From Acidimicrobiales bacterium (GTDB lineage Bacteria > Actinomycetota > Acidimicrobiia > Acidimicrobiales > Aldehydirespiratoraceae), in NCBI GenBank assembly GCA_965214945.1, contig OZ244029.1, forward strand, positions 872,533 through 936,532: a DNA stretch of 64,000 nucleotides. Reading direction: 5' to 3'. Position 1 is the stretch's first letter, and each line of letters opens with the position of its first letter. The position numbers were made by a program, and so were the translations under genes. This document shows positions 24,791 to 44,546 of this stretch, in pieces. The notes below the pieces were generated by a model. That model was not told the DNA's origin. It worked only from the letters and a program-made list of their open reading frames with translations, and did no database searches.

Positions 24791-25774
24791 TCACTGGTGA
24801 GCTGCCCTGCTGACCGTCTCGACGATGCGGTCGACCGAGGGGATCGTCGCGTCCTCTAGCGAATCGGCTGCCGGAAGCGGAACGTGGGGAGTGGTGATGC
24901 GCACCACCGGGCCGTCGAGGTCCCAGAAGGCTTCATCGGCGACGATGGAGGCGATCTCGGCGCCCCAGCCGCACAGTCGAGGGTTTTCCTCAACCGTGAT
25001 CAGCCGGCTGGTCTTGGTGACGGATGCGAGGATGGTCTGGGTGTCGAGCGGGACCAGCGAGCGGACGTCGATGACCTCGGCGTCGATCCCTTCCGCGGCC
25101 AGCTGCTCAGCGGCGTCGAGAGTTCGATGGACCATGAGCGCGAGCGCCACGATCGTGACGTCGCTGCCAGGCCGGACCACCTTGGCGACCCCCAGCTCGT
25201 CGACGATGTCCCCGTCGTGGTCTGGCAGGTCGAACTTCATCGGGTAGCACGACTTGTGTTCGAAGAACATCACCGGGTCCGGATCGCGAACCGACGCAGC
25301 CAGCAGACCGATCGTGTCCTGGGCCGTCGACGGCGCAACCACCTTGAGGCCGGGAACAGCCATCGCCCAATTCTCCACGCTCTGAGAGTGCTGGGCCCCG
25401 AAGCGGGATCCCCCGCCGTTGGCCGTGCGGATCACGAGCGGGAACGACAGCTGGCCGGCGGTCATGTAGCGACTCTTGGCGATCTCGTTGGCGACGATGT
25501 CCCAACACACGGCAAGGAAGTCGCTGAACATGATCTCGGCGATCGGGCGGAGGCCGGTCATCGCCGCACCCATCGCCGCGCCCAGAATCGCCTGCTCAGA
25601 GATCGGGGCGTCACGCACACGCTCGGGTCCGAACTGCTCGAGCAGGCCGGTGGTGGTCTTAAACACCCCACCCGCGCCGGCGACGTCCTCGCCCAAGAAC
25701 ACGACGCGAGGGTCGTTCGCCAGCTCTTGGGCAATGCCTCTGCTGACGGCTTCTCGGTAAGTCAGTTGCGCCAT
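24791..25774 (-). CDS. 2-oxoacid (pyruvate/acetoin) dehydrogenase E1 component beta subunit
   Basis: LGEDVAGAGGVFKTTTGLLEQFGPERVRDAPISEQAILGAAMGAAMTGLRPIAEIMFSDF, typical of E1-beta. Overlaps the upstream alpha-subunit stop. Confidence 0.85.
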   Translation of the reverse strand: MAQLTYREAVSRGIAQELANDPRVVFLGEDVAGAGGVFKTTTGLLEQFGPERVRDAPISEQAILGAAMGAAMTGLRPIAEIMFSDFLAVCWDIVANEIAKSRYMTAGQLSFPLVIRTANGGGSRFGAQHSQSVENWAMAVPGLKVVAPSTAQDTIGLLAASVRDPDPVMFFEHKSCYPMKFDLPDHDGDIVDELGVAKVVRPGSDVTIVALALMVHRTLDAAEQLAAEGIDAEVIDVRSLVPLDTQTILASVTKTSRLITVEENPRLCGWGAEIASIVADEAFWDLDGPVVRITTPHVPLPAADSLEDATIPSVDRIVETVSRAAHQ

Positions 25775-26826
25775 GACGAGCCTCCGTCAGCCCAGACGTC
25801 AGTGAATATCGTCTTGAGATCGGGAATGGCCCCACCGACCGCTTCCTGGGTGGCGACGTCAACCGCCTGGGCTGTCTCGGTGGCGATTCGGGTGAGGTCA
25901 CCCTCCGGCACCCCCAGCTGAAGCAGCCGCTGGTGATACATGGGGATCGGGTCGCGCTCGAGCCAGGCCTCGATCTCCTCGTCGGGCCGGTAGGTCCCCG
26001 GGTCGGCCCGACTGTGGCCGCCGTGGCGGTAGGTCTGAGCCTCGATAAGGGATGGTCCGCCACCCGACCGTGCACGGTCGAGCGCGTCCGATGCCACCGC
26101 GTAGACAGCGTCGGCGTCGTTGCCGTCCACGATGATCGAATCCAGTCCGTAGGCGGGTGCTCGGTCGGCAGCAGGGTTCGGCACGGCCGTGACCTGGCCG
26201 ATGGCGGTGTATTCCATGTAAAGGTTGTTCTCGCAGACGAAGACTGTGGGCAGGTTCCACACCTTGGCGAAGTTGATCGCCTCGTGGAACGCTCCGATGT
26301 TGGTAGTGCCGTCGCCGAAGAACGCCACGGCGACCTGGCCCGTCTGCAGGAGTTGGGCGGTCCACGCCGCGCCGTTGGCCACGCAGAGGTGGGCGCCGAT
26401 GATGGCGTAGCTGCCCATCACCCCGTGATCGACGCTCGTGAGGTGCATCGACCCGCCTTTGCCACCCAACAGGCCGTTGGCTCGCCCGAGGAGTTCGGCC
26501 ATCACCGGCGTCATCGGGACACCGCGGGCCAGCGTGTGTGCGTGACCGCGGTAGGTGGCGAATGTCCAGTCGTCCGGTCGCATGGCTGCGCCGAAGCCCG
26601 CGGCGATGGCCTCCTGACCCAGCGAGAGGTGACTAGTCCCCTTGACGAGACCGCGCAGGAAGAGGTCGTAGGCGCGCTTTTCGAAGAGCCGGATCTCTTG
26701 CTGCAGGCGATAGAGGCGAAGCCGGACATCGGAGGCGATCGGCAGCTCGGCGTTGGCATGGTCGACCGGATCGGGGAGGATCGGCTCGTGATGGCCATAC
26801 TCCTCGAACGAGGGCATGGTGGTCAT
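25762..26826 (-). CDS. 2-oxoacid (pyruvate/acetoin) dehydrogenase E1 component alpha subunit
   Basis: TPP-binding region GDGTTNIGAFHEAINFAKVWNLPTVFVCENNLYMEYT, plus YRGHAH and GKGGSMH. Start placed at MTTMPSFEEY (26826) so that it does not overlap the upstream convergent stop. Confidence 0.8.
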   Translation of the reverse strand: MTTMPSFEEYGHHEPILPDPVDHANAELPIASDVRLRLYRLQQEIRLFEKRAYDLFLRGLVKGTSHLSLGQEAIAAGFGAAMRPDDWTFATYRGHAHTLARGVPMTPVMAELLGRANGLLGGKGGSMHLTSVDHGVMGSYAIIGAHLCVANGAAWTAQLLQTGQVAVAFFGDGTTNIGAFHEAINFAKVWNLPTVFVCENNLYMEYTAIGQVTAVPNPAADRAPAYGLDSIIVDGNDADAVYAVASDALDRARSGGGPSLIEAQTYRHGGHSRADPGTYRPDEEIEAWLERDPIPMYHQRLLQLGVPEGDLTRIATETAQAVDVATQEAVGGAIPDLKTIFTDVWADGGSSWRN

Positions 26827-26834
26827 TGGGCGCC

Positions 26835-28085
26835 TCAGTATTGGTTGGCGACGAAGAGTTCTTCGGCAGGGAAAAGCGTGATGACGTCGCACCCGTCGGG
26901 GGTCACGACCACCTCTTCTTCGATTCGGGCGGCGGACACACCGTCGGTGGCGGGGCAGTAGGTCTCAAGAGCGAACACCATGCCTTCCTTGATCTCCATC
27001 GGATGATCGAGTGAGTTAACCCGGCTGATGATGGGCCGCTCGTGCAGGCCGAGCCCGAGGCCGTGGCCGAACTGAAGTCCGAACGCCTCGAACTCGCTGT
27101 CGAAGCCGAACTCGTGACAGGCAGGAAAACCCTCGGCGACGTCCTTGGTGCTGATCCCCGGTTTGATCATCTCTATCGCGGCGTCGATCCACTCGCGAGC
27201 CTTGCTGTACGCCTGGTGTTGGGCTGAGGTGGCCCGCCCCACGTTCAGGGTGCGGTAGTAGCAGGTTCGGTATCCGTTGAACGACTGGATGATGTCGAAG
27301 AATGCCTGATCGCCGGGCCTGAGGAGACGATCCGAGAAATTGTGCGGGTGGGGGCTGCAGCGTTCACCCGAGACGGCGTTCACCGCCTCCACGTCGTCGG
27401 AACCCATCTCGTACAGCCGCTTGTTGACCAGCGCGACGATCTCGTTCTCCCTGATGCCGGGTTTCAGCACCTCGGAGATCATCTGGTAAGCGCCATCCAC
27501 CATCGAGGCAGCGGTGGTCAACAGCATGATCTCGTCCGGGGACTTGATCTCGCGCGCGTCGAGCATGATCTGTTGGCCGTCGATCACCGTGATGCCCTCG
27601 TCTTGGAGCGCGAACAACATCGGAGGTTCAACGATGTCGACGCCGAGCGGCATGCCCGCCACGCCCTGTTCTCGCAGAATGCTCGCGATCTCCTTCGCCG
27701 TTCGGACGAAGAGCCCATTGTCTGGGGGGATGGCGCCGCGCAGTCCGTTGAGGCCGGCGCGGCAGTTGTCCGGATCGAGCCAGGGGGCATAGAGCCGGTG
27801 GTGCGCCGCCGCGGATCCGAAGTCCCAGACCATCGGCTCGTTCTCGCGCGCCAGCAAGGAGAACCGTGTCATCTTGTCGCGGGCCCACTCGCCGATCTGT
27901 GTGCTCGTCGTGTAACGAATGTTGTTGGTGTCGAAGCAAAGGAGCGCACCAGCCCGGGAAGCGTCGAGGGCCTGGCGGACGCGAGCGAGTCGGTACTCAC
28001 GCAACCGTTGAAAGTTGACCCGCTCCTCGAAGTCCACGGCCATGGATCCGGGCGACGGGGTCACGGCAATTGCGAATTCGGCCAT
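26835..28085 (-). CDS. M24-family (creatinase/Xaa-Pro peptidase fold) hydrolase
   Basis: HGLGLGLHERPII, MVFALETYCP and IEEEVVVT are pita-bread fold metal-site blocks. Start placed at MAEFAIAV (28085); the ORF track extension to 28247 looks non-coding. Confidence 0.7.
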   Translation of the reverse strand: MAEFAIAVTPSPGSMAVDFEERVNFQRLREYRLARVRQALDASRAGALLCFDTNNIRYTTSTQIGEWARDKMTRFSLLARENEPMVWDFGSAAAHHRLYAPWLDPDNCRAGLNGLRGAIPPDNGLFVRTAKEIASILREQGVAGMPLGVDIVEPPMLFALQDEGITVIDGQQIMLDAREIKSPDEIMLLTTAASMVDGAYQMISEVLKPGIRENEIVALVNKRLYEMGSDDVEAVNAVSGERCSPHPHNFSDRLLRPGDQAFFDIIQSFNGYRTCYYRTLNVGRATSAQHQAYSKAREWIDAAIEMIKPGISTKDVAEGFPACHEFGFDSEFEAFGLQFGHGLGLGLHERPIISRVNSLDHPMEIKEGMVFALETYCPATDGVSAARIEEEVVVTPDGCDVITLFPAEELFVANQY

Positions 28086-28224
28086 CTCGTCCTTTTGCGT
28101 CTGTGTCTGCCACTGGTTCGTCTGCCACGCGCCTATTCGTGGGCGACATAGCGCTGCTGTGGCCGGCGGCGACTGGGGCTTGGCCGGCGGCGACCGGCAC
28201 CATGCCCAGATAATAGGCGAATTA

Positions 28225-28238
28225 TGCAACCGATTGCA
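28225..28238. promoter_or_regulatory. LacI/GalR-type operator palindrome TGCAACCGATTGCA
   Basis: Lies in the divergent M24 hydrolase / permease intergenic region. Confidence 0.6.
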
Positions 28239-28311
28239 AACCATCACAACGCACGTATCGGCTACTTCTTACCGAAGTTTGGCCGATATCGCTCACATGT
28301 GGATGATAATT

Positions 28312-28325
28312 TGCAATCGATTGCA
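28312..28325. promoter_or_regulatory. LacI/GalR-type operator palindrome TGCAATCGATTGCA
   Basis: Perfect palindrome identical to the site at 23041, about 60 nt upstream of the permease start. Confidence 0.65.
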
Positions 28326-28385
28326 TAACCTATTAGGTTCGGGCTCCGATGGAGTCGACCCGCTGGAGGGAGGTGTCTGCTGCAC

Positions 28386-29402
28386 ATGATCCGTGAGACA
28401 GTTGACGCGACACCTGGCGGAGCGGACCTCGGTGCGCCGAGCGACGACGCCGCTGAGCCGTTCCAGCTGCTGGATTGGATGGCAGACCGCGGCATCTTCC
28501 TGTTCACCGCCCTGCTCGTCGCGGCGTCAGCGATCTTCGTCGACGGGTTTGCGACCGTCGACAACATCACAGACGTCTTCAATCGAGCCGCCCCGATCGG
28601 GATCGTGGCTGTCGGCATGACGTTCGTGGTGATCAGCGCCAACTACCTCGACCTCTCGGTCGTGGCCCAGGTGGCAACGTCGGCCGTTCTCCTCATCGCT
28701 GTTAGCAACGAATCGAACATCTTGGTGGCCATGGCCCTCGCTCTGCTCGTCGCGATCGCCTACGGGCTCGTGAATGGCACGGCTGTGGGCGTGTTCGGCG
28801 CTAACGCGGTCATCGTCACCCTGTCGACGACGTTCATCGGGCTCGGCATACTCCGATGGGCAAGCGGCGGAAGTATCTACTTCGGCTCGAACGACGGCTT
28901 CATCCGTGACTTCGGGACGTCGGAGATCGGACCGTTCCCGCTGTCGATGCTCCTGTTGATAGTGGTAGCGCTGATCCTCCAGTTGGTCTTGAACAACACC
29001 ACCTTCGGCTTCCTGGTGAAGTCCTACGGCTCGAATCGGGAGGCAACGCGGCTGGCCGGTGTCAGCACATCGTGGGTTGTCATCGGCGCGTTCACGTTCT
29101 CCGCGTTCGGGGCGATGCTTGGCGGCTGGGTCCTCGCCGCGTTCTCCAACACGGCGGTCTCGGCGATGTCGCAAGGCTTCGACTTCGAAGCGCTGGCGGC
29201 CATCATCGTCGGTGGCACCAGCGTGTTCGGTGGCAAGGGGAGCGTGCTTCGGACGCTCCTCGGGGTGGTGTTCGTGAGTGTGCTCACCAACATCATGGTG
29301 TTGTCCGGATTCGGGTTCGGGTACCAGCAGATGGCGATCGGGGCACTGATCGTCCTCGCGGTCTCGGTCGACGCGCTCGCCCGAAGGCTGGTGAGAACAT
29401 GA
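28386..29402 (+). CDS. Sugar ABC transporter permease (RbsC/AraH family)
   Basis: Polytopic hydrophobic protein with family-typical blocks (YGSNREATRLAGVS, IVGGTSVFGGKGSV). Stop overlaps the next start (ATGA). Confidence 0.8.
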   Translation: MIRETVDATPGGADLGAPSDDAAEPFQLLDWMADRGIFLFTALLVAASAIFVDGFATVDNITDVFNRAAPIGIVAVGMTFVVISANYLDLSVVAQVATSAVLLIAVSNESNILVAMALALLVAIAYGLVNGTAVGVFGANAVIVTLSTTFIGLGILRWASGGSIYFGSNDGFIRDFGTSEIGPFPLSMLLLIVVALILQLVLNNTTFGFLVKSYGSNREATRLAGVSTSWVVIGAFTFSAFGAMLGGWVLAAFSNTAVSAMSQGFDFEALAAIIVGGTSVFGGKGSVLRTLLGVVFVSVLTNIMVLSGFGFGYQQMAIGALIVLAVSVDALARRLVRT

Positions 29403-30478
29403 GTCAGTCGGCCGGTCTCCACCTCGGGATCGCCCAGACCGATCTGATCGGTCGGATCAAGACCACCATCGCTCGCCGCACGGAAGGACGCGCCATCGTC
29501 CTGCTCATCGGCGTGGCCATCTGGGCCTGGATCGAAGACGACACGGTCTTCACCGCCTATGAGGTCACGCTCGGCCGGATCGCGCTGATAGGCCTCGTGG
29601 CCCTGGGGTTGACGGCCGTCATCCTCATGGGCGAACTCGACCTCAGCATCGCTAGCACCCTCGCTGTCGCCGGCGTCGTCATGGCCAGTATCGACAACAT
29701 GGCGCTGGGGATCGTTGCTGCGCTCGTTGTTGGGCTCGCGATCGGCGCGTTGAACGCTTTCTTCGTGGTGATCGTCGGGATCAACTCCTTCATCGCGACA
29801 CTCGGCATGCTTTTCTTCCTGCGCGGTCTCGCTTTCGTCATCTCCGACGAGGAGCCGGTCCGCATCTCCGACGTCGACGCCGGCATCGCGTTCGGCAAAC
29901 CGCTCATCGGAGACTTCACGCCTCGTGTCCTGATCTTTTTGTTGACCTTCGTGGCGATGCAGGTCTTCTTGAGTCGCGTCCGTGTCGGCCGCGAGTTCTA
30001 TGCGGTCGGCGGCAACCGGGAAGCGGCTCGCGACGCAGGGATCCCCGTCCGCCGACGGGTTTTCACCGGCTTCATGATCTCCGGATTCATCGCTGCTGGC
30101 GCTGGTGTGATCAACACGCTCGAGCGTACGGCCGCCGATCCGACGGCTGGCGGCACCGTCCTGTTGTCTAGCTTCGCCGCCGCGATCGTCGGCGGAATCC
30201 TGCTAACTGGCGGTCGTGGCTCGGTGGTCGGGACACTTCTCGGCGCAGCTTCGCTTGGCATCCTGCAGATCGCGCTGACTCTCACAGCGGTCGAGGTCGA
30301 CGTCCAGAACATCATCATCGGCCTTGTGCTGTTCGTGGCCGTGGTGACCGATCCGACGACTCTGCGGTCGGTTATCTCGAGCGCACGGTCTGCCATCCGC
30401 GCTCGCCGCTCCGGTGGTGCGAACACATTACCACGACCCACATTACCGCGACCGGGCTCCTCGCAAACCAGTCACTGA
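29399..30478 (+). CDS. Sugar ABC transporter permease (second subunit)
   Basis: AVGGNREAARDAGIPV and IVGGILLTGGRGSV blocks, paralogous to the previous permease. Start at ATG 29399 (MSQSAGL). Confidence 0.8.
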   Translation: MSQSAGLHLGIAQTDLIGRIKTTIARRTEGRAIVLLIGVAIWAWIEDDTVFTAYEVTLGRIALIGLVALGLTAVILMGELDLSIASTLAVAGVVMASIDNMALGIVAALVVGLAIGALNAFFVVIVGINSFIATLGMLFFLRGLAFVISDEEPVRISDVDAGIAFGKPLIGDFTPRVLIFLLTFVAMQVFLSRVRVGREFYAVGGNREAARDAGIPVRRRVFTGFMISGFIAAGAGVINTLERTAADPTAGGTVLLSSFAAAIVGGILLTGGRGSVVGTLLGAASLGILQIALTLTAVEVDVQNIIIGLVLFVAVVTDPTTLRSVISSARSAIRARRSGGANTLPRPTLPRPGSSQTSH

Positions 30479-30554
30479 CCTCAACCATTACTGAGACCTC
30501 AACCATTACAGATCACTGACCCCCCAACCATTACAGAAAGGACCCAGTGAACCT

Positions 30555-31604
30555 ATGAGCAAGACAGATACCACCGACAGGCGATGGAGGCCGCTTATCG
30601 GCCTGTTCCTGGCAGTCACTCTGGTCGCTGCCGCGTGTGGCGGTGACGACGATGACGAATCTGCAGCGGAACCCGCCCCCGCGTCCGACGATGACGGTGG
30701 TGCCTCTGGCGATGGAGAGACCTTCGAGGTATTCGCCCTCCTGCCGCAGGGCAACGACCAGCCGTACGGAACCACCTACCTGCCGCCGTTCGAAGCCAAG
30801 GCTGCGGAGCTCGGCCTGAACCTCAACATCACGAACTCGCAGTACGACGCCGACAAGCAGGCGAGCGAGTGTGAGGTCGCGGTTGCTGCTGAACCGGACC
30901 TGATCATCCTTTGGCCCGCGGTCGGCGACACGGTGCGTCCATGTCTCGAAGCGGCAAGGGACGCGGGAATCCCGGTGACGGTGACGAACTCCGACGTGAA
31001 CCCCGAAGACAAGGACCTGACTGCCGCCTACTCCGGCCCCGACACTTACGGGCAGGGCGCGGCGTCAGGTGAGCTGATGTGCGAGTTCGCCGACGGGCAG
31101 GAGATCGGCATCATCATGGTTAATGGCCTCACCGGCAACTCCACCGCGATCGACCGAGAAAACGGCTTCGAGGAGACGATCGACGAGCAATGCCCGAACG
31201 TGGAGATCCTGGCCCGCCAACCGGGCAACTGGAACAAGGACGACTCGCAACTTGCTGCATCCGAGATGATCACGGCCGTTGGCGCCGAGAACATCCAGGG
31301 CGTCTACGCAGCGGACGACACCATGGTGGCCGGGGTGATTGATGCGCTGAAGGCCCGTGACATCGATCCGGCTGGACTCATCATCACCTCGATCGGGAAC
31401 ACATTCCTCGGGAACCCGCTCGTGAAGAACGGCGAGCTCGACGGCACGATCTTCCAGTCGTCGTCGTGGGACGGCGAGAACGCCGCAGTGACTGCCTACG
31501 AGATCCTGACCGGCGTTACCTCCGAGCGCATCGTCAAGTTCATGCCCTCTGTCAAGGTGACTGTCGATAACGCCGACGACCCGTCGGTCGCTCCCGAGTG
31601 GTAA
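30555..31604 (+). CDS. Sugar ABC transporter substrate-binding lipoprotein
   Basis: Signal peptide with lipobox LVAAACGG, an acidic linker, then a periplasmic-binding-protein type I pattern (alternating beta-alpha blocks, GIIMVNGLTGNSTAIDRENGF). Confidence 0.75.
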   Translation: MSKTDTTDRRWRPLIGLFLAVTLVAAACGGDDDDESAAEPAPASDDDGGASGDGETFEVFALLPQGNDQPYGTTYLPPFEAKAAELGLNLNITNSQYDADKQASECEVAVAAEPDLIILWPAVGDTVRPCLEAARDAGIPVTVTNSDVNPEDKDLTAAYSGPDTYGQGAASGELMCEFADGQEIGIIMVNGLTGNSTAIDRENGFEETIDEQCPNVEILARQPGNWNKDDSQLAASEMITAVGAENIQGVYAADDTMVAGVIDALKARDIDPAGLIITSIGNTFLGNPLVKNGELDGTIFQSSSWDGENAAVTAYEILTGVTSERIVKFMPSVKVTVDNADDPSVAPEW

Positions 31605-31748
31605 CCCGCAACCGCAGGTAACCCGCAACCGCAACTAACGGTCGGACGCGGGACCCGGGGGAGTGGTTCCCCTCCGCACAGCCCTTGGGTCCCGCGTGCC
31701 CGACTTGTCACCCGCGTGCTCGGCTTGTAATTAGCAAAATATGCAGAG

Positions 31749-32774
31749 ATGAGCGTCACCCTCAAAGATGTGGCCGACCGAGCGGGTGTGACTGTTTCCA
31801 CCGCATCACGCGCCCTGAGCGTCGACAAGAACACCTTGGTGAAACGCTCCACCCGACTCCGCGTAATAGAAGCCGCCGAGGCGCTGCGCTACCGAGGGAA
31901 TCTCCAAGCCTCGGCGCTTCGGAGGGGGCGGACGGGGACGATCGGCGTGATTGTCGCCGACCTCAGCAACCCGTTCGTCGGCCCCGTCTTGCGGGGCATC
32001 GCGAACGGGTTGAGCAGCAGAGATCTCCTGCCGATCATTACCGAGTCCAGGGATTCGTCGCAAGACCTGGCGACGATTTGCAACAAACTGTTGGCGCAGC
32101 GGGTCGATGGGTTGATCGTGGCCTCCGGTCGATACCGCGATCGCTCGCTGCTGCGGCGGGTCGCGGCCGAACTGCCCACGGTGCTAGCAGTGCGCGAGCT
32201 GCCCGGCAGCGGCATCCGGGCGGTCGCCCACGACGACGTGTCCGGAGGCCGCCTGGCAGCGGAACACCTGCTGGGACTCGGGCACACCCGACTCGCCCAA
32301 CTCACAGGCCCCCAGGACATCTGGTCGTTCGAGGGGCGCGGGCAGGGCTTTCGCAACGCCGTTTCGGCGGGCGGTGCGACCTGCATCGACATCGATGCTT
32401 CGGTACAGCTGCCGACCGTCGAGGCCGGTCAGAGGCTGGCCGCCAGTCTGTTGGATCTGCCCGACGATCTCCCCACCGCGGTCTTTGCCCACAACGACAG
32501 CATCGCGATCGGGGCTATCGCCATGCTGCGAGCCCGCGGCTTTGACTGTCCCCGTGACGTCTCGGTAGTCGGGTACAACGACGTTCCCCTGGCCGACCAG
32601 ATACAACCACCGTTGACAACGATCCGGCTCCCTGGCTACGAACTCGGCCGGCTCGCCGCAGAACTCGTGCTCTCGGGCATTGAAGGAACGGAACCGACGA
32701 CCGACAAGGTCATGTTGGCGCCCGTGTTGGTCGTGCGGGAGTCCACGGCAGCACAGCGGCACAGCGGCGAATGA
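31749..32774 (+). CDS. LacI-family transcriptional regulator
   Basis: N-terminal HTH VTLKDVADRAGVTVSTASRALS, followed by a sugar-binding core (IGVIVADLSNPF, VVGYNDVPLA). Confidence 0.9.
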   Translation: MSVTLKDVADRAGVTVSTASRALSVDKNTLVKRSTRLRVIEAAEALRYRGNLQASALRRGRTGTIGVIVADLSNPFVGPVLRGIANGLSSRDLLPIITESRDSSQDLATICNKLLAQRVDGLIVASGRYRDRSLLRRVAAELPTVLAVRELPGSGIRAVAHDDVSGGRLAAEHLLGLGHTRLAQLTGPQDIWSFEGRGQGFRNAVSAGGATCIDIDASVQLPTVEAGQRLAASLLDLPDDLPTAVFAHNDSIAIGAIAMLRARGFDCPRDVSVVGYNDVPLADQIQPPLTTIRLPGYELGRLAAELVLSGIEGTEPTTDKVMLAPVLVVRESTAAQRHSGE

Positions 32775-33664
32775 CACGGCGGCATGGAGCTGGTGTGACC
32801 CGCGTCGGCGTCGCCGGTCTCGGCCGGATGGGCACCCCGATGGCCGCCAACTTGATCCGAGCCGGGTTCTCCGTCGGGTTGTGGAACCGCAGTCGTGACA
32901 AAGCGGAGACGCTGGCGGCGAGCACGGGCACCAAGATCCACGACACCCCGCGGGTGTTGGCCGAGACCTCCGATGTCGTCGTCACCATGCTCGCTGACGA
33001 TGCGGCTTCCACGGCGGTGCACAAAGGCGATGATGGCCTGTTCGCTGCCTCTGACGGTGCTCGGGTCTTCCTGGAGATGGGAACGCTGAGCGTCGGCCAT
33101 TTTCGGGACCTTGTCGCTGTCGGTGGCGATCGTCTTGTCATCGATGCCCCGGTCTCGGGTTCGATAGACGCGGCGAGCGCGGCCCAGCTCCTCGTTATGG
33201 TCGGAGCTGAGGCCCACACGATTGACCCGTTTCGGCCTGTGCTCGAGGCGATCAGCCGCCAGATCATCTGCCTGGGGCACCGCGGTGCGGCCGCCAGGAT
33301 GAAACTGGCGGTCAACCTCGTCATACACGGTTTGAATCAGTCAATCGCCGAAGCTCTAGTGCTGGCGGAGGGCGGTGGCATCGACCCAGACCTGGCCTAT
33401 GAAGTGCTCGAGAACTCCGCGGCGGCTGCCCCGATGGTCGGCTACCGGAAACCGCAGTACCTGGACGAGGCCGCGAGCCCGGTGTCCTTCGCCCTCTCCC
33501 TTGCACGCAAAGATCTTGAGCTAGCGCTCGAGTGCGCTGGCAACACCGGTGTGCGGATGCCGCAGACCGCGCTGAACGTAGCCCAGCTGCGAGCGGCCGA
33601 GGCCGCCGGTCTCGGCGACCGCGACATGGCCGCCATGGTGTCCCATCTGAGAGGGAACCCATGA
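32771..33664 (+). CDS. NAD(P)-dependent oxidoreductase, 3-hydroxyisobutyrate/6-phosphogluconate dehydrogenase-like
   Basis: VGVAGLGRMGTPMAANLIRAGFSVGLWNRS dinucleotide-binding motif. ATGA overlap with the lacI-family stop (alternative GTG start at 32795). Confidence 0.75.
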   Translation: MTRRHGAGVTRVGVAGLGRMGTPMAANLIRAGFSVGLWNRSRDKAETLAASTGTKIHDTPRVLAETSDVVVTMLADDAASTAVHKGDDGLFAASDGARVFLEMGTLSVGHFRDLVAVGGDRLVIDAPVSGSIDAASAAQLLVMVGAEAHTIDPFRPVLEAISRQIICLGHRGAAARMKLAVNLVIHGLNQSIAEALVLAEGGGIDPDLAYEVLENSAAAAPMVGYRKPQYLDEAASPVSFALSLARKDLELALECAGNTGVRMPQTALNVAQLRAAEAAGLGDRDMAAMVSHLRGNP

Positions 33665-34413
33665 CCGAGAACCGATCCATGACCGAGAACCAGTCCAAGA
33701 CCGCCGTCTTGTTTGTCGGAGGCTGGGAGGGACATAAGCCCCAGGTCTTCTGCGACTGGACCCAGGAACTCCTCGAGAGCGAGGGGTTCAAGGTTGTTAC
33801 CCACGAAAGCCTCTCGCCGCTGGCTCGCCCGGAGCAGATGGCAGAGGTCGACCTCGTGGTGCCTATCTGGTCGAGCGCCCGTTCCGCGCATCAGCCGGAG
33901 TTCGGCAACATGACGAAGGCTGAAGAGGATGGTCTGCTCGCCCTCATCGCCGACGGATGCGGGATCGCCGGGTGGCACGGCCACATGGGGGACGCATTCA
34001 GGGACCGCCCGACGTACCACTTTCTCATCGGTGGCCAGTTCGTCGCCCACCCGCCGGGTTGGCCCGACAACCCGATCCCGTCCGATGACTTCGTCGAGTA
34101 CGACGTCACCATCACCAAGCCCTACGACCCCATCGTTCGTGGCATCAAGAGTTTCCGGCTCACTTCGGAGCAGTACTACATGCTCGTCGACCCGTCGAAC
34201 GAGGTTCTGGCCACCACCACCTTCTCGGGAGAGCATCTTTGGTGGATCGAAGGGACGAGGATTCCGGTTGTGTGGAAGCGTCGGTGGGATCGGGGTCGGG
34301 TGTTCTACTGCTCGGTCGGTCACGCGATCGAAGACCTTCGGATCCCGCAGGTGACCGAGATCATGCGTCGCGGCATGTTGTGGGCAGCCGCGGGACGCTC
34401 CGAGGCTCTATAA
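33661..34413 (+). CDS. ThuA-like (trehalose-utilisation domain) protein
   Basis: AVLFVGGWEGHKP, IAGWHGHMGDAFR and RVFYCSVGH blocks. The start carries an 18-nt tandem duplication (atgaccgagaaccgatcc / atgaccgagaaccagtcc). Confidence 0.6.
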   Translation: MTENRSMTENQSKTAVLFVGGWEGHKPQVFCDWTQELLESEGFKVVTHESLSPLARPEQMAEVDLVVPIWSSARSAHQPEFGNMTKAEEDGLLALIADGCGIAGWHGHMGDAFRDRPTYHFLIGGQFVAHPPGWPDNPIPSDDFVEYDVTITKPYDPIVRGIKSFRLTSEQYYMLVDPSNEVLATTTFSGEHLWWIEGTRIPVVWKRRWDRGRVFYCSVGHAIEDLRIPQVTEIMRRGMLWAAAGRSEAL

Positions 34414-34419
34414 CCCGTC

Positions 34420-34634
34420 ATCTGGTCGGTCAAGTCGTGATCTAGAATCGGCGGACGTGGTCCAGGTTGAGTTCGAGTTCGAGACGTTGAGTTCGAGCCC
34501 GAGACCGGGCGCAGTCGGCGGCACACCCCAGCCGTCGACGATCTCGGGCATGGCCGGGTGGATGAGGTCGCGTCGCAGGATCGAGGTGACCGGTTCGATA
34601 GTGCGGAAATCGATCATCGGGATCTGCATGCTTG
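34420..34634 (-). pseudogene. 3-prime fragment of the enolase-superfamily gene (repeat copy C), truncated at about 34634
   Basis: The minus-strand translation ends ...APGLGLELN...LNLDHVRRF-stop (stop complement at 34442-34444). It aligns to copy B (ccagcc.tcga.gatctcgggcat.gc..ggtggatgaggtcgcgtcgcaggatc) and shares the downstream flank with copy A. Confidence 0.75.
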
Positions 34635-34685
34635 TCGAGGACAATGCTGAGAAGGCGCAAAAGCTGATGGCGAAAGCTGACAGAA

Positions 34686-35894
34686 TTAAGGCAAGAGCGC
34701 AACAACGACCTGGTCGGCTACTTGGCGCGCCAGCAGGGGCGGTACTGCGTTCCCTAGCTGAGACTGGACCGACGCTCGCTTTCCTGCGAAGGCATAGCTG
34801 TCGGGGAAGGTGAACAGGCTCCGCAGTTCGGGTACCCGCAGTCGCCGGTTTTTCAGTGGAATGGCCCGACGTTGGGGCCCAGTTGGGCCTGGATGGTCGG
34901 TGAGGGTCTGTCGGGGTCGAGCTTCAGCAGGAACGACCAGTACCGTGACCGTCAATCGAAGATGGGTTCGGGATGGCCGCGTCTGGCGGTGAAGTGCAGG
35001 TAGTTGTCTCCGGGCGGGATCTGCGGGAGCAGATGACCCCACGATCCGCGTACGACTTCTTCTGGTTCGGGCTCGGTGACCAGGCCGTTGAGAACCTCGC
35101 CTGACGTGACATGCGGAACAACGCCTCGCGATCTGCTCCTACGTTCCCATTGGCCGAAGTGCGTCGGTGAGGGCAGCCTGGGAAGGCGTTCCCGTTTGCG
35201 GCTGCCGACAACGAAGAGGCGGCGCCGGGCTTGGGGCACGCCATAGTCGGCGGCGTTGAGCACCTTCCCGAGCTGCCCGCGCCTACCAGCGGCAGCGGTA
35301 GCCGGCGGCTTCGATCTCAGATAGCAGCCGGTTGAAGACCGGGCGGCTTGCGCCTTGTTGTCAAAGGTCAGCGCGTGGACGTTCTCAAAGATGAAGAGGC
35401 GGGGCCGGGCCTCTGACAGCACACGGGTGTAGGCCTGCAGCAGGCTCGCTGCCGGATCGATGCCGTCGCGCTTCCAGCCCAGCCAGAAGCCGGACTTGGA
35501 GAAGGCGACGCAGGGAGGGCCCGCCGATCAGCAGGTCGGGCTGTTCACGGCCTCTGAGGCCTGCGGCTCGCGGGATGTCCTTGGTCAACAGCCCCGAGGA
35601 CTGCCCGTTGGCCAGGGGGAACAGGTCACCGCGCACCACCTTGCGAAGCGAGGGAAAGTACGTAGGCGCGTTCTTCTCCATCGTGTCGGCAGCGGCGTCG
35701 TCCCACTCGATAGCAGCCAGCACCGCGAAGCCCGCGGCCTCCACCCCGAGATCAAGACCCCCGGCACCCGAGAACAACGAGATCGCAGAACCGGCGGACA
35801 CCCTGGCATTATTGCGGATCCGGCGGACACCCTCACATCTGCCCGCTCGCAGCCTCTTAGCGGCGCTCCCTTGTGTCGGAACTCTGGGTAGCAC
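34686..35894 (-). pseudogene. DNA (cytosine-5) methyltransferase pseudogene with three inactivating lesions
   Basis: Motifs FSGAGGLDLG (I), GGP then PCVAFS in a shifted frame (IV), FIFENV (VI), GVPQARRRLF (VIII), QLGNAVPP (X). Lesions: a frameshift inside the GGPPC motif near 35,510; a TGA in place of Trp in FD-W-RSRYW at 34952-34954; a 1-nt loss in HW-KNRRL near 34,855. Confidence 0.8.
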
Positions 35895-36073: not shown

Positions 36074-39000
36074 ATGTGTAGCGAATCGAAAGGTATGTGG
36101 GTCTTGGATTCGACCGGCCCGTGGCAACGCTACTTCCGCTGGAATGAGGCGATTGCTGACGTCGTCTTCAGCAGTGATCATGCTGGAAGTCCGGTCTATT
36201 TGGACCTCGAAGACCACATCATGAGCGAGGTCGCATCGAAAGCCGAACCGGGAGGCACGGGAGGTGCTAGCGGCCTAATCAAGGCGGTGAAGGACACGCT
36301 AGTTCTCGAACGTGGCCCTTCCCAGGTCTTCGCAGGGCACTTCAACCATCTGCGCGCATGGCGCAACGGCTCGAGGCTGAACCCGCCACCGGTCCTTGGC
36401 CTGCTGGGGATGCTGAGCCTGGTGGCAGAGGTGATGCACGAGGGCGAAGGCATGAAGGCGAACAACTTCTGGGGCCGGATGGCGCAGCTGCTAGATCTTG
36501 AACCGGGCGGTCTGAAGGCGTTTCAACAAGCCTTTTGGCACAAGGTCGACGGTCGCCCAGTGTCGGCACAGCTCTACGACTCCCTCAACGTCTGGTTGGA
36601 GATGCTCGAAGGCAATCGTGGGCTTCCGACAGCTATCGCCGCTGGACACCAGCATATCGGGTGGCCACTCTCTCAGGCCCTCGTTCGTGAGACGGATCGA
36701 GACCGATTTGGCGACCTGTTTGCACTCAACGCGTTGCCGCCAAGGAGTTCGCTACCGACATTCGAGATGGAGGGGCTGATCGAGGAGTGGATCTCGCACC
36801 GGCCATGTCCAGCGAGCAACTCCCTTGTACGTCTATGGAAGACAGGTTCGGAGGCACGAGCACGCATCACGGATGTGGCTGTGCTCACGCTCGGGTCGTG
36901 GGACGGCACTTCCGAGCGTATGTCCGAGCGGAGTAGCGCAAGTCGTCCTGTGGACGTTGTGCGTGCCACGGTTGTTCTGCGCACGTTTCCGTCTCGGAGC
37001 ATTCACGTCGGACTGGTTGTGCCCGGCCAATCTTCTGGTTCAGCGGATATTGTCGAGGTCGTTGACCGCGATGGTTCGGCTGTCAAGACGTTCGAGATGA
37101 CGGCCGCATCTTCCGCCTACCTGAGTCTGGCTGAGTCCGGATCCATCGATCCGGCCAGCTTCTTGGCTGGCGAAGTACTCCTGCGAAGGCGTGGGGATGA
37201 AGCTCTGCTGCGTCGCCGCGCTCGTAGGGTGATACCGATGCGGCACGATGACTTGCTGCAGGCATGGGTGGAGTGCGAGAGAGTTCAGCTTGCTGAGGAA
37301 TCTCTGGTTCTTGTCCGGTGCGAATTGGAACCGAAAGCCAAGAATGTGCTCAAGAAGATTGCGAGGCCTGGATTTAAGGTCGAAGGCGCGATGCTGGGGC
37401 TTCCTGAAGGCTGGATTGCAGTGTCCAGAGTTCAGGTCGTATCGTCGGTTCCGATCGAATTGCGTGAGAAAATTCGCGTGGAACTCAACGTTCTTCAGCC
37501 GCTTGCCACGTCACAGGCAGTGCTGGAGGGCGGTCTGCAGATTCCTGGAAACATTCAGAAGTGGTCCACTCTTCTTCCGCCGGAGTTCCGCGCTACTACT
37601 GATAGCGAACAGAGCCAGACGGCGTTGCTCACCTGTACCCGTGTGCTGACCTCGCTGCGTCCAGAGGATCGAAGGATCGTTGGTCAGGGGCAAGTGCTGG
37701 TTTGGGACTTGGCTCATGAGAGTCTCGGAGATGGCGACTACAAGCTCACTGTGCTTCAAGACGAAGAGCCAATCCGAATCGTGACTCTTCGCCTGCGTTC
37801 TGCCGATACTCCGGCTGTTCGTGGCGACGAGGCTGGGCTGCCGATTGTCCACGATCCAGAAGCCATCGGATTCGGGCTCGTTGCCTGCCCAAGTGACAAG
37901 CCGGGCGGTTTCCGCGGTGCACGCTCGACCCGTGCCCAAGTACCACACCAGCCTCTGCCAGCAGTCCCTGATTGGTACTCCGCACGTAGAGAACGGCCAG
38001 AGGCGCCCCAGAGTGCGGCTTGCGGCCAGTTTCGATTCCCCGCCGCCGATGACAGCTCCTGCATGGTAACCGGATATCACGTGATGAGCCTTGAGACTGC
38101 TCAAAAGGGGATGAAAAATGTCGAGGGTGTGTGCAAGGGCTGTGGTCTAGTGAAGCGCTACCCGGCTTGGCGAGGGAAGCCGAAGTCTGCCTGTCGGTCG
38201 TCGAGCAGGACGGCCTTGGCTCCCCGAATCGACGTAAAGGCCCTCGCCCCTGTTCGGGTAGCAGAAGGCATCGATTGGAGCGCAGCCTTCGACGTTGTCT
38301 GTCATGTCGGCTCAGGTCCAGCGTCTTCTCTCGCCCGCATCGCAGCTCAGCTAGAGGGCACCAGCTTATTCGGCAACATATTCGAACGACGGCTTGAAGC
38401 GCTCAGCCACATCGAGATCGAACGCACCAGCAGCCAGATGATTGCCAGTTGGGAAGTGGTAGAGCCTCTTATCCTCGGCCTCGGCGACGGATCTGCTGTT
38501 CTTGCTGGCTTCAGGAGCGCGAAGATGCTAGATGCCATCAGAGACTATGTAAAGGATTGCCAAGGCTTCCTTGAAATCGAGGAAGTTGATGCACCTCCGG
38601 TCGTGTACATCCGCAACCTGACCTCGGACCAACTCGGCAACCTGACCGCCGTCATGAGCGTTGTCGTCCAACGAGAGGCTCGGTATGTGCCACGGGCATC
38701 TGAGCAACTCTGCGCAGAACTACCGCCGTTGAGCCGAGCCCGCCGTGGACTGCCCACAACAACCACCACCAGGGCTCGGAGCTACGAGAGGTGGGATCCG
38801 GTTACTGCGCGCTTTGTACAAGTCGATAATGCGTCCTCTGCAGGGGCGTTTCGGCTCAGTGGCTTCACCCGCCAGTACATCTACAGGACTACCAATGACG
38901 TCGCCAAGATGCGAGCGGTTATCGGCGATGCCCGAATTGTGAAGTATCTCGCCGCCGCAGATGCTGGACTGGCAATCGTTGGCTACGACGTCGCGGCCAA

Positions 39001-39166
39001 GGTACTGTACGTACCCCTAGGCGCTGATCTGCCAGGCCTCTACGGACGCGCGGCAACCCTTTGTTCTGGAAGGCTGCCTCACGAGAATCGCAATGAACAG
39101 ATACTCGAGTATCGGAACATCCCCGCAGACGTAGCCGCACACCTCTCGCGCCTACTCATGAACTAA
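36074..39166 (+). CDS. Large uncharacterised protein, DruH-like by position and size (Druantia type III partner)
   Basis: A 1030-aa ORF with coding-like composition and no motif I recognise. It sits immediately upstream of the DruE-like gene (13-nt gap). The start is uncertain (ATG 36074 or ATG 36095). Confidence 0.45.
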
Positions 39167-39179: not shown

Positions 39180-42100
39180 TTGACGATTACCACCCCGCAG
39201 AGCGTGTACGACGACATCAAGCAGGCGTACCTCCGTTATGTCGACACGACGTTCTGGCTCCGGTCATCCGCGCTCAGATCCGAACGAAGACGCCTACTCG
39301 AGGAGACTGATCTGCTCTTCACAGATGTACTGGTCGAGCCCGTTCTTCCCTACGACGCAACGGTTCCCCTTGATGAAGTCGTAGGCGACCTAGGCATTGA
39401 TCCACAGGTGGGCGAACTCGTCGGCCAGGCACTGTTCGGGGTGTTCACGAAGCCTGGCTGTCCCTACCTGCTGCGTTCACATCAAGCAGAGGCTCTTCGG
39501 CAGTCCCTCCAGTCTGGGGTTGCAGATGGCCGCAACGTCGTAGTGACCTCCGGCACAGGTTCCGGCAAGACAGAATCCTTTCTGCTTCCCGTGCTCACCA
39601 GGCTCGTAGACGAAGCCCTTGCATGGCTGCAGGATCCCCCTATCCATCCCTGGTGGGACCAGACCCGGGAGCCTTGGATTGGCTCTCGGCATGGCTCCTT
39701 CCGCCAGGCCGCAATCAGAGCTGTCGTTCTCTACCCGACCAATGCGCTAGTCGAGGATCAAGTGACTCGTTTGCGAAGAGCCATCAGGTCGATCAGAGGC
39801 TCTGGCGGTCCGCAGCTCTGGTTCGGACGCTACACGAGCGCAACACTCGGCTCGGGGAATCCTCCGGCAACGTCGCGAGATCGTAGAAAGGTGGAAGAAG
39901 CCGGCCGTGAGCTTCGCGCAATGACGAGCGAGTACGACGTCCTCATCAACGTAGATGGGATCGATCTCGCGGAGTTTCCTGATCCGCGCCAAGGCGAGAT
40001 GCTGACCAGATGGGACATGGTTACAAGCCCGCCAGACGTGCTTGTAACGAACTACTCGATGCTCAACGCTATGCTCATGCGCGATATCGAGGAACCGATG
40101 TTCGAGGCCACCCGACAGTGGCTTCGTAGCGATGAGGGCAACGTGTTCTCCCTGGTTGTCGACGAACTCCATCTCTACCGCGGGACGCAGGGGTCAGAAG
40201 TCGCGATGATCGTCCGCAACCTTCTGAGCCGTCTCGGACTTAACCCAGAATCGCCACAGCTGCGGTGTCTGGCGACCTCGGCGTCATTAACCGACAACCC
40301 GAGCAGCCTTGACTACCTTGAGCAGTTCTTTGGTGTTCCACGCTCTTCATTCTTCGTCACGGCAGGATCTCCCCGTTCTGTTGACACTGATCTGCCGATC
40401 AGTGGGTCTGACTTGCTCCACACATGGCAGAGCACTCCCGCAGCTGACCGAGGCATCGCAGTAGTCGAGCAGTTCTCGCTTCCTGAAGCTGTTGCATCGG
40501 CTTGCCAAGATCACGAAGGGCATGTGCGCGCTACACGCCTTGATGAACTCGCTGTGAAGCTGTTTGGCAACAATTCAGACCCATGTGCGTTTCAAGTCGC
40601 CCTTGAAGCACTGGGAGGCCTGAAGGCGGGAGCAGACTCAATACCACTTCGGGCACACATGTTCGCCCGTACTATGCGCGGGCTCTGGGCTTGCTCCAAT
40701 CCTTCATGCGACCAGGTGAGCCGCCAAGAAGATCTGGGTATCGGACGCATATTCGGTATCGCCACATCGACCTGCGGATGTGGCGGCCGAGTCCTCGAGC
40801 TCCTCTATTGTTTCGAGTGCGGCGACGTCAGCCTCGGCGGATACGTGGCCACGGAAGAGGAAGGCGTCACATTCCTCACCTCGACACCCGCCGACGTGCT
40901 CGCGGGCAAGGCCGCCCCCGTTTTCAAGCGATTGCACAATGCCTACCGGTGGTACCGTCCAGGCCCCGAACGCAGCTGGCGGACGTGGGGTCCGACGACC
41001 CCGTGTGGCAAGAAGATCAAGATCGGCTTCGCAGCCACCGACTACGACCCACTGCTAGGCGCTCTGATCACGCCACCGGAGGGATCCGGCACTGGAATGC
41101 TCCTCGCGGGCATTCCAGCAGACGAGAACCTGCGGACGCCATCCCTGCCAGTGCACTGTCCACGCTGCGATCAACGAACCGGAGTCCTTGATGGTCACAC
41201 CTACTTCGTAGGCGAGGTTCGCAGCCCAATTCGTGCACACATGTCCGGTATCGACCAGGCAACTCAGCTGCTGATGACTCAGCTTCACCGGTCTATGGGA
41301 GACACGGTCGAGGAATCCCGCACGATCGTCTTCACGGACAGCCGTGAAGGTGCAGCACGCACCGCCAGCGGCACCGAACTCAACCAATTCCGTGATCTCG
41401 TCCGGCAGCTCACCCGGCGAGTTCTCCAGCAACAGGAAGACCACATCGACATCATGCGGCGCGGTTCTGCAGATATCGACGCTCTAGAGCCAGAAGAGCG
41501 AGTGCTCTACGATCAGATCGCTGCAGGAGATGCGGCACTTGCCCAAGCCTTTCTCCGTGACCATCTCGGCGCAGCAACACCTGTAGATATTGAGCGCATC
41601 GCTGCGTTCGAGGCCCAACATAGCGGATCCAAGCAATTCGTATCATGGGGTTCTATCATACATCGCCTGAGCAAAGAATTGCTCCAACTTGGCCTGAACC
41701 CTGCAGGCCCTGACGCTTCCCTCCGAACATTTGACAACGCTGATGACGTCCCTTGGTATCGTGCCTGGGAGCCACCCAAACCCGGTCTTTGGCATCAGGT
41801 CGAGTTCGACCTCGCTCAGCAGGCCCAGCAACGGCAGAAGGAACGCCTCACGATCAGAGTCGCTGAGGGTGCCTTCGATCGCGCAGGACGAGACCTGGAG
41901 TCGATCGGCCTCGGGATCGTTGAGCCCAGCATCGCCAATCCTTTATCTTGGCCACTCGGCAACGACGAAGCACAAGAAGTCGTCAGGTCCGTAACCCGAA
42001 TCCTGGGCACCATGGGCCGATACGACGGCAGCTACTACCGGCATCCCAGCGACAACCCTCCAAAGAATGTCAAGGACTATCTCGTTGCGGTATCAGCCGG

Positions 42101-44546
42101 GCGATGTGACGAAGAAGCACTGATAAAGCATGTGTCGACTCTCTTCTTAGGCAGTATCGCGCCAGACTGGATTCTTGCAACAAACCCAGTTCGATCTACC
42201 CTGCGGGTCATCAGTCCCACCTCTTCATCCCGCTGGGTCTGCTCAAACTGCGCACGTGTGCATCTTCATCCGTCTGCCGACGTGTGCTCTGGTACCGGCT
42301 GCAACGCGCGTGGACTCATCGAACAAGAAATAACACCCGACAACTTCGAGGACTACTACTCATGGCTTGCCCAGTTGCCCCCGCGTCGACTTCGCGTTCG
42401 CGAATTGACAGGACAAACGAAGCCTCTCGACCTTCAACGCCAACGCCAACGCATCTTCAAGGGAGCGGTTCTTCCGCCACCGAGAGAAGAAGCCACGTGT
42501 GACGGCATCGACGTGCTCAGTGTGACGACAACGATGGAGGTCGGCGTGGACATCGGCTCGCTTCGATCCGTCATGATGGCCAACGTCCCGCCCCAGCGTT
42601 TCAACTACCAGCAGCGCGTTGGACGCGCTGGCCGCATGGGTCAAGCCTTCTCGTACGCACTCACCCTTGTACGCGATCGCACACACGACGACTACTACTA
42701 CAAGCACACCCACAAGATAACCGGGGATGCGCCACCCCAGCCCTTTCTCGACACGAGGCGAGACCGAATTCTCAAGCGAGTAGCCAGCGCCGAGCTGCTT
42801 CGGCGAGCCTTTTTGTCTCTGCCCAATCCGCCCAAGCGGACTGCGGACTCGATCCACGGTGTTTTTGGACGAACGGATGAATGGGAGGGCCTACATCGGA
42901 GCGGAGTCCGCTCCTTCCTCGAACAGGCTCCCGACGTTGACGAGGTCGTAGGGCGCCTTAGTGCCTTCACGGGTATGCCCCACGACACACTTGGCGATAT
43001 CGTTCTCTGGCAGCGCAGCAACCTGGTGCTCAAAATCGACGAGGCGGTGCAAAGCCCCTACTACCGACAGCCAGAACTCTCCGAACTGCTAGCGAATGCA
43101 GGTCTACTGCCCATGTTTGGGTTTCCAACCCGGGTCCGCAACCTCTACGGGAGGTGGATCAAGTTGCGCGAAGATCTTGACGCTTACACAGTGAGCACCC
43201 GTCCGCTCGACCAAGCCATAGCGCACTTCTCGCCAGGCTCTGAGGTCACACACGAGGGGTCTATCTACACGTGTGTTGGATTCGCCGCATATGACATCAA
43301 GGCGGGCCGGCCCTTCCCAGTAGATCCACTGAGTGAGAGAATCGAGTTCAGCCGATGTGTTGGGTGTGATCGCACGGAAGTGTCCGGGAACGATATATTG
43401 CACGCCTGCCCTGCCTGTGACAGCGAACTTGAGATCGTTCCGTTGCACCAGCCTCTGGGCTTCAGGACCTCTTACTCGCCTAGGAACTATGATGACATCG
43501 TTGAGGGTGTGGGGTCCATTGGATTTCCTCAACTCGCCATGCGTCCAGGCACGGGTGACTCGGAGACGGTTGGCGCAATGGTTGTCGAAAGATGGGAAGA
43601 GCCGGTCTCGGTGGTGCGCATCAACGACAATGAGGGAAGACTTTTTTCGCTCCTCCGCGAACGCGACGGCACCGTTGTTTGCGATGACGACTCGCTTTAT
43701 AGGAAGCAGAAGAGTTTCGAATCCGCTGGTTCGACTAGACTCGAATCAGCGGCGATAGGAGAGATTAGGCCGACCGATGTCGTGACACTCTCCCTTGAGC
43801 AGGTCGCGTTGCACGGAGGTGTCATACCCACGGCCGGCTATCTGGCGCCCGCCGGAATGAGTGCGATGTGGTCATTCGCAGAGCTCATGCGGCGAGGGTG
43901 TCAGGTCGCGCTTGACCTCCAACCGGATGAGATTCAGGTCGGCCTGCAGCCGATCCGAATTGGGGACTTTGAGACTCGCCTGATCTTTCTCGCGGATCGC
44001 CTTGAGAACGGCGCTGGCTACGCGCCGGAACTCGGCCAGAGCAAGCACCTCAAGCAGGTGTTGGATGGCATTCTCGGAGAGCTAGCTGACGAGTATGAGG
44101 GACCCGGTCATGCCGACGACTGTGGCCAATCATGCCCCGACTGCCTCCGCAGCTGGGACAACCGTCGATTGCACGGTTTGCTCGATTGGCGTCTGGCGCT
44201 GGACGTGGCAACCCTCGCCACTGGCTTGTCGCTTCGTACCGACCGGTGGCTGAGCCGCGCTGAGGGGCTTGCCGATCAGTTCGTCCGCGCGTACCACCAG
44301 GCCTTGCCATGCCGGATCGCTTTGGCTGGCGATTTGTTCGCTATCATCCGGCAAGACAACAAGGCTGCAGCGATCCTCGGCCATCCGCTATGGATGCAAG
44401 ATGAGAGATATCTCAACACCCAGCAATCCGAGGCTTACAACATCGTTCGATCAGACCTCGGTGTTCGGAATGCGTCCCTCACTGACCTCTGGGTGCTTGA
44501 CCGCATTCCGGCGAGGATCTTCAGAGTTCTCCGTGAAGCCGACTGA
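39180..44546 (+). CDS. druE: Giant DExH helicase fused to a DUF1998 domain, DruE-like (Druantia)
   Basis: [20 protein letters not shown] (I), [12 protein letters not shown] (Ia), [16 protein letters not shown] (II), [37 protein letters not shown] (V-VI). Several Cys4 clusters. C-terminal DUF1998-type [26 protein letters not shown] start with AGGA upstream. 1788 aa. Confidence 0.7.

Follow-up and report, generated by a model that had tools for sequence, protein, structure and literature searches.

The locus examined here raises the question of why a short piece of an enolase-superfamily gene stands between the last gene of a sugar-utilisation operon and a block of defence genes in an Acidimicrobiales genome. 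The piece, 215 nt at positions 34420-34634 of a 64,000-nucleotide stretch of DNA (hereafter, the window; GC content 61.7%), had been described in the initial annotation as the third copy of the 3' end of a native enolase gene, cut at the left edge of the second defence block. We refer to this piece as copy C and to the two others as copies A and B. Our analysis led to a reading that we regard as probable, namely that copy C is the deletion stub of a border gene at a core-gene-flanked defence hotspot, whose relics were multiplied by homologous recombination. The features of copy C are as follows.

34422-34634, minus strand: copy C, 3'-terminal relic of an MR/MLE enolase-superfamily gene (approximately codons 329-389 plus about 8 nt of shared flank)
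34430-34432, minus strand: ancestral TGA stop codon of the enolase gene, placed by alignment with copy A and the related contigs L081 and L082
34442-34444, minus strand: premature TAG in copy C, a CAG codon in copy A and intact homologues
34466-34505, no strand assigned: 20-nt tandem duplication in copy C that frameshifts the relic

The presence of a third, truncated enolase-family copy was confirmed by its matches to copies A and B and to intact homologues. In a self-BLAST search of the window, positions 34486-34635 aligned with 17421-17570 of copy B (82% over 150 nt, E 5e-36) and positions 34422-34483 with 1915-1977 of copy A (89% over 63 nt, E 8e-15). A tblastn search with the intact homologues P0001 and P0002 placed the fragment at approximately codons 320/329-384 of a 388-389-aa protein (E 1e-24, the value for P0002), and the minus-strand reading was colinear, codon by codon, with the C-terminus of intact MR/MLE proteins of this length. 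The nucleotide identity to intact homologues on related metagenome contigs was 84-87%. A stitched translation of copies A and C matched Pfam MR_MLE_C at E 1.5e-25 and no other domain, and the intact homologues P0001-P0019 carried both MR_MLE_N and MR_MLE_C. By descent, copy C therefore belongs to the MR/MLE enolases, as its similarity to members of the family is significant and colinear. It resembles the MR/MLE subgroup, as defined by the Pfam pair MR_MLE_N and MR_MLE_C, in its colinearity with the C-terminal end of MR_MLE_C proteins, and differs from the intact homologues with both domains in being reduced to the last ~61 codons. As a gene it does not qualify: codons 1-328 are absent, and there is no ORF of approximately 360-400 aa with both domains. 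No full-length enolase was found anywhere in the 64-kb window by tblastn with the intact homologues.

The abrupt end of similarity that had been noticed at about 34634 is real, because every nucleotide alignment, with copy B as well as with homologues from seven other contigs, ended at 34632-34635. A tblastn match in which protein similarity reached 34719 was rejected, since the extension falls on the C-terminal codons of the adjacent methylase gene, read in a different frame, and has no counterpart in the DNA alignment. At the other end, the fragment had been read as closing with LNLDHVRRF and a stop codon. The minus-strand reading holds; the stop, however, is the premature TAG at 34442-34444, and the ancestral TGA lies beyond it, 16 nt from the stop codon of the convergent thuA gene (34411-34413). 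The flank of about 35 nt thought to be shared with copy A shrinks accordingly: ~12 nt of former coding sequence come first, then the stop codon, and only ~8-10 nt are true flank. Judged from its sequence, copy C is a dead, non-functional remnant of an MR/MLE gene that cannot encode an enzyme, because codons 1-328 have been lost, a 20-nt tandem duplication has arisen and a CAG codon has become TAG.

Three copies within 64 kb might also be expected of a dispersed short repeat of the MITE or REP type that merely resembles a gene end. We consider this extremely improbable, as copy C is colinear with the C-terminus of intact MR/MLE proteins, copies A and B extend over most of the gene, and the fragment has no terminal inverted repeats, no match in the plasmid database and no Rfam family. 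Rfam, terminator and promoter scans around copy C also gave nothing meaningful. A metagenome scan with an enolase profile returned two short close relatives, all other hits being paralogues at no more than 54% identity; the gene contexts of P0022 (53% identity) were unrelated.

On its right-hand side, copy C adjoins what had been called a dcm pseudogene followed by Druantia-like genes, and this arrangement was confirmed.

34635-34689, no strand assigned: spacer of 55 nt from the break of copy C to the druM stop, without similarity to relatives
34690-35804, minus strand: druM, C5 cytosine methylase gene of type II Druantia, a pseudogene with two frameshifts
36074-39166, plus strand: druF (PADLOC DruF2, E 2e-223)
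39180-44546, plus strand: druE (PADLOC DruE2, E 0)

The coding end of druM, at ~34690, lies 55 nt past the break of copy C, with druF and druE beyond. The best PADLOC matches of the dcm pseudogene were to DruM2, in three ORF pieces, and tblastn with the intact relative P0028 located the two changes of frame near 35539 and 34856. The druF and druE reading frames are open, unlike that of druM. Type II Druantia was reportedly described by Doron et al. in 2018 as druM-druF-druG-druE. The block shares with it strong matches to the DruM2, DruF2 and DruE2 models, and its druM is divergent from druF, as in the related contigs L090-L092; it differs in that druM is frameshifted twice and that no match to DruG was detected among the window ORFs scanned, a difference that concerns the neighbour and not copy C itself. 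The second defence block is thus predicted to be type II Druantia, its methylase gene being broken. Druantia would stand here without an intact methylase, unless the druM shifts are sequencing errors; such errors could account for the frameshifts in druM and in drmC of the DISARM system described below, and cannot account for the large deletions in the enolase copies. Further defence genes were observed to the right of Druantia, namely a pair of type II methyltransferase and restriction enzyme at 45604-47910 and, within 49319-53120, an NsnB/AAA_15-type ATPase preceded by two ORFs with no match. Near the right end of the window, between 57607 and 64000, there are diverged repeats (70-83%), some of them inverted (57949-59066 versus 62911-64000; 57607-57728 versus 59080-59201), which resemble paralogous genes with weak glycosyltransferase (PMT) similarity.

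The relationship between copy C and the Druantia block was clarified by relatives in which the enolase gene is intact. In contig L081, druM is followed by ~9 kb and then by an intact enolase gene on the druM strand. The intervening DNA contains a 46-aa ORF and genes for an AAA_14/DUF4143 protein, an SDR, an APH, a radical-SAM protein, an aldehyde dehydrogenase and an AAA_16 protein. Three more contigs with this order (L090-L092) were found by a look-up with the L081 DruM protein, and their first ~190 nt match the start of the window druF, divergent from druM as in the window. The ~9-kb intervening genes of L081, L090 and L091 do not occur anywhere in the window. The window druM is 81% identical at the nucleotide level to the intact druM of L081 and L090 (34715-35689 being the part aligned to L081), and copy C (~81-87%) and druM are similarly diverged from the relatives, as expected if the two were inherited together.

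These observations are most simply explained by a single deletion of ~9.95 kb, with one end ~55 nt beyond the stop codon of druM and the other inside the enolase gene at codon ~329; the size is the sum of the 9,023 nt that separate the two genes in the relatives and the 987 nt at the start of the enolase gene, minus the 55-nt spacer. Such a deletion would have joined two existing neighbours, the Druantia block and the 3' end of the enolase gene. The spacer at the junction has no match to the relatives, and the exact breakpoints are therefore uncertain; the ancestral state of the window genome is reconstructed from metagenome contigs at ~80-87% identity. The claim that the native enolase gene was cut here is thus upheld as far as the truncation at codon ~329 is concerned, and the order of genes in L081, L090 and L091 points to a deletion, not to insertion of a defence block, as its cause. 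Since druF and druM are neighbours of an intact enolase gene in the relatives, ~9 kb apart, the Druantia block was not inserted into it. We infer that copy C is probably a deletion scar rather than an insertion target, and that it historically belongs with the right-hand block.

To the left of copy C lies ordinary metabolism.

22057-34413: sugar-utilisation operon of 12 kb, terminated by thuA
33661-34413, plus strand: thuA, the last gene of this operon, convergent with copy C

The operon comprises genes for an SDR, an ABC ATPase, E1 alpha and beta subunits, an M24 peptidase, two permeases, a binding protein, a LacI protein, a 3-hydroxyisobutyrate-dehydrogenase-type protein and ThuA, and is conserved, in rearranged form, across many Acidimicrobiales and alphaproteobacterial genomes. 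The window ThuA protein is at most 86% identical to those of Acidimicrobiales/Ilumatobacteraceae MAGs. It had been expected that relatives would carry thuA followed by an intact enolase gene; this expectation failed. None of the 80 thuA loci examined in species-representative genomes had a copy C-type enolase within 10 kb, and no thuA stood beside any of the enolase loci examined. As neither set of loci pairs the two genes, the thuA/copy C junction is itself evidently derived. The operon sits between a pair of 349- and 775-aa genes, described below, and copy C; as metabolism rather than defence inside the presumed hotspot interval, it counts against the reading that we favour.

The operon itself has been rearranged. 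In four relatives, an SDR gene 88-89% identical to the one at 22057-22860 comes immediately after thuA, in the same orientation. The window SDR gene is inverted and lies at the opposite end of the operon; the gene for the ABC ATPase has been displaced too. In L007, a complete Acidimicrobiales chromosome, ~7 kb downstream of thuA (~12100-19600) are without the usual codon-position GC pattern, which suggests foreign DNA beside thuA there as well.

The other two enolase copies are found with further defence genes in the left part of the window, where each is joined to a relic of a second gene, here termed orfX.

82-1290, plus strand: C-terminal half of a PbeC/DndD-like gene, of defence type, beyond the 3' end of copy A
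1915-2732, minus strand: copy A, frameshifted enolase relic (codons 72-340 and ~376 to the end)
2723-3200, plus strand: orfX relic A (codons 22-171, one frameshift), head-to-head with copy A
3276-17122, plus strand: class 1 DISARM (drmD, drmMI, drmA, drmB and drmC, the last split into two ORFs)
17406-17932, minus strand: copy B, enolase relic with internal deletions (approximately codons 128-167, 183-236 and 309 to the end)
17921-18169, plus strand: orfX relic B', head-to-head with copy B (codons 34-116; the hypothetical gene has a length of 176 aa)
18477-21850, plus strand: two uncharacterised genes, of 349 and 775 aa, with homologues directly upstream of orfX in locus L173

The three copies derive from the same enolase-family gene; on alignment, copy A matches copy B at 90% identity, and copy C matches either of the two at 81-83%. 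Copy C is no closer to A and B than to enolase genes on other contigs, and is therefore not a recent copy of either. The idea that A and B are simple cuts of the native gene did not survive, as both are head-to-head fusions to orfX, 10% apart from each other and ~18% from copy C. Copy A lacks the N-terminal 71 codons and copy B the first 127, and both copies are frameshifted. Each is joined 5'-to-5' to an orfX relic, and the promoter region has been lost together with the 5' ends of the two genes. The stretch common to A and B beyond the enolase gene (2767-3005 versus 17929-18168, 90%) is part of orfX on the plus strand. Because copy B has an extra 204-nt deletion that spans the position of the joint in copy A, a single origin and two independent 5'-5' deletions are indistinguishable. 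A and B share an identical run of 47 bp, presumably long enough for RecA-dependent recombination. Both copies are probably older relics of the same border gene.

DISARM is bracketed by orfX relic A and enolase copy B. The two overlapping ORFs of drmC (16383-17122) cover model positions 2-102 and 113-239, as a result of a frameshift or a sequencing error, and the drmMI/drmA region (8785-13450) is 75% identical at the nucleotide level to the DISARM of Nocardioides sp. JS614 plasmid NC_008697. At the left edge of the window (82-1762), the C-terminal half of the PbeC/DndD-like ATPase is followed by a 175-aa ORF without assignment, and a further defence system probably continues past this edge. The 349/775-aa pair has no Pfam or PADLOC match and is 75% and 72% identical in amino acid sequence to the pair at 5785-9158 of L173. 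A description of orfX as cupin-like was rejected, as it rested on a motif seen by eye and PF12973 matches in few homologues; the gene is kept as hypothetical, and Pfam gave no match for the orfX protein of contig L083 or for the window orfX relics. The same gene does serve as junction for three cassettes, as the initial annotation had it, in that a Pbe/Dnd-like gene lies left of copy A, DISARM between A and B, and Druantia right of copy C; the junction of copy C is attributed to a deletion, and those of A and B are orfX fusions.

Such a series of relics might have arisen by in-situ segmental duplication of a dead locus followed by neutral decay, with no horizontal input and an incidental association with defence. 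In favour of this explanation, the nearest relative of copy A is copy B and vice versa (90%), possibly with one enolase::orfX joint in common, and all copies are heavily decayed. Each unit, however, contains a different island (Pbe-like; DISARM; the 349/775 pair and the operon), so that replacement would be needed too, the similarity of copy C to A and B is no greater than to the genes of other genomes, and relatives have other defence-type content, including drmD relics, in the same interval. We therefore consider it unlikely. An assembly artefact, in which a metagenome assembler strung together the versions that different strains have of a single variable locus, appears very improbable. The source is apparently an uncultured Acidimicrobiales genome, several genes (druM, drmC) are frameshifted, and a related long-read contig has a suspicious 9-kb duplicate 58.7 kb apart; against this, the copies differ from one another by 10-18% and in their large internal deletions, and they are joined to orfX at particular points of truncation for which an intact allele of another strain could not be the source. 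Head-to-head joints of truncated genes are not something that an assembler can create. The contig in question is ERZ25070786:ctg149805l, of which both L081 and L173 are parts: ~9 kb of island genes occur twice (L081 12524-21167 versus L173 20531-11676), as a 99/71/96.5% mosaic, and may represent a real duplication or a strain-chimeric assembly.

The reading that we favour, a stub at a hotspot border, draws on the corresponding interval in relatives. In L083, an enolase gene cut at codon ~191 is fused by deletion to a remnant of the AAA_16 gene; there, too, a deletion has joined the enolase 5'-to-5' with the gene upstream of it. This is followed by a three-gene cassette (a GHKL ATPase with weak restriction-enzyme matches and two unknowns), a second enolase 3'-end copy of 118 nt that is 97.5% identical to the first, a 639-aa gene, a methylase gene and then orfX, convergent with the enolase. 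The direct repeats (1221-1338 and 6142-6259) flank the 4.9-kb cassette, in which no recombinase was called. The orfX protein on the L081 contig, P0148, is 92% identical to that of L083, and its gene is likewise convergent with the enolase. The interval between orfX and enolase holds a PLD-SNF2 helicase and a 1,400-aa type IIG-like protein in L081/L173, the GHKL-ATPase/restriction-like cassette in L083 and DISARM in the window. Directly after orfX, at 11045-11293, L173 also contains drmD relics (codons 18-48 and 175-212), which are evidence of the loss or replacement of DISARM; no enolase relic was found between the 776-aa gene and orfX there.

The same flanks, enolase and orfX, thus surround variable DNA in the window (from orfX relic A to enolase copy B), in L083 and in the L081/L173 contig, a small sample. 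The right part of the window is colinear with L173/L081 in the 349/775 pair, the interval, enolase copy C, druM and druF, and differs from it in the loss of orfX, the 9.95-kb deletion and the thuA operon inside the interval. The comparison shows that the content of the interval bordered by the enolase 3' end and orfX changes from one genome to another, and that several of the genes in it are of predicted defence type. A defence-island hotspot, as had been proposed, is supported by this variation and by the duplicated enolase 3' ends around the L083 cassette; the support comes from four or five relatives, and several of the island genes there have no defence-model match.

Because the 3' end is the part of the gene that is always retained, integrative elements that each brought a replacement 3' end might have targeted it by means of a site-specific recombinase, tandem accretion leaving a single fragment for every element. 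The 4.9-kb L083 cassette inside its near-identical 118-nt direct repeats resembles the tandem accretion of integrase-borne islands at a gene 3' end (tRNA/tmRNA or protein-gene att sites), as do the repeated 3' ends that separate successive islands. In addition, homology between the copies ends on the 3' side at closely spaced points, all ~10 nt or less from the stop codon, and the breakpoint at codon ~341 recurs in the internal deletion of copy A and in the second L083 fragment. Several findings nevertheless argue against site-specific insertion. No integrase, transposase or recombinase Pfam domain was present in any window ORF scanned, nor was an integrase or recombinase among the precomputed calls for L083; no tRNA gene was found in a scan of the window; and comparison of the far ends of the islands with the enolase 3' ends gave no repeated att-like core, only chance matches of 7-10 nt. 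The 5' extents of the fragments are very different (codons 72, 128, 191, 329 and 341) and their sizes range from 118 nt to 0.8 kb, one junction, the 5' break of copy C, is demonstrably accounted for by deletion relative to L081, and the restored full-length gene required at the end of such an array is missing here. Duplication of an attachment site is thus distinctly unlikely.

Homologous recombination through the border genes, as in the favoured reading, could account for the head-to-head enolase::orfX joints, the two genes normally being convergent on either side of an island. Tandem duplication would create such joints, and Campbell-type insertion of a circularised [orfX-island-enolase] unit through homologous border genes would give the same ones and would let several islands accumulate with no need of an integrase. 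The sequence of events, and the origin of the extra units from other strains or in place, can be given only as an inference from the present arrangement. The stubs are inert as genes today and at most provide homology for further recombination. A stronger version, in which the enolase and orfX stubs are portable homology arms, is a minor possibility: circles such as [orfX-DISARM-enolase stub] would be excised by recombination between stub copies in direct orientation, and could re-insert by RecA-dependent single crossover at any site with these border genes; if true, it would mean integrase-free, cassette-like stacking and exchange of whole defence systems in Acidimicrobiales.

Many hotspots are without mobile-element genes, and homologous recombination is raised in their flanking core genes (PMC5635113). 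Core defence hotspots are marked by constant flanking genes, e.g., cDHS1 and cDHS2 of Pseudomonas aeruginosa, and how hotspots are built is still open in the hotspot literature (PMC10250203). The window interval resembles these core-gene-flanked hotspots in having variable defence systems between the same two genes, the enolase-family gene and orfX, and in having no integrase, transposase or tRNA markers at the locus; this likeness is judged on a handful of metagenome relatives, in which the flanks are candidate core genes. Turnover at such hotspots is attributed to homologous recombination in the flanks, which is likewise proposed for the window. The window differs in that its flanks are dead and multiplied (three enolase and two orfX relics, head-to-head) and in that its islands are stacked in tandem, not one allele replacing another. 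The locus is an unexceptional case of genome decay at a hotspot of a familiar type; its tandem-accretion architecture is of modest interest.

As a marker, copy C indicates that the enolase gene already had the Druantia block as its neighbour when the deletion brought the two together. Seen alongside the other two enolase copies and the orfX relics, it also directs attention to the interval between enolase and orfX, where DISARM, restriction-like cassettes and helicase-nuclease systems of uncultured Acidimicrobiales appear to interchange without recognisable mobile-element genes. The conserved 349/775-aa pair at the border of the hotspot is a candidate uncharacterised module for study. If the stub joints arose from circular intermediates, the locus would be a natural case of defence-island accretion by housekeeping recombination alone.
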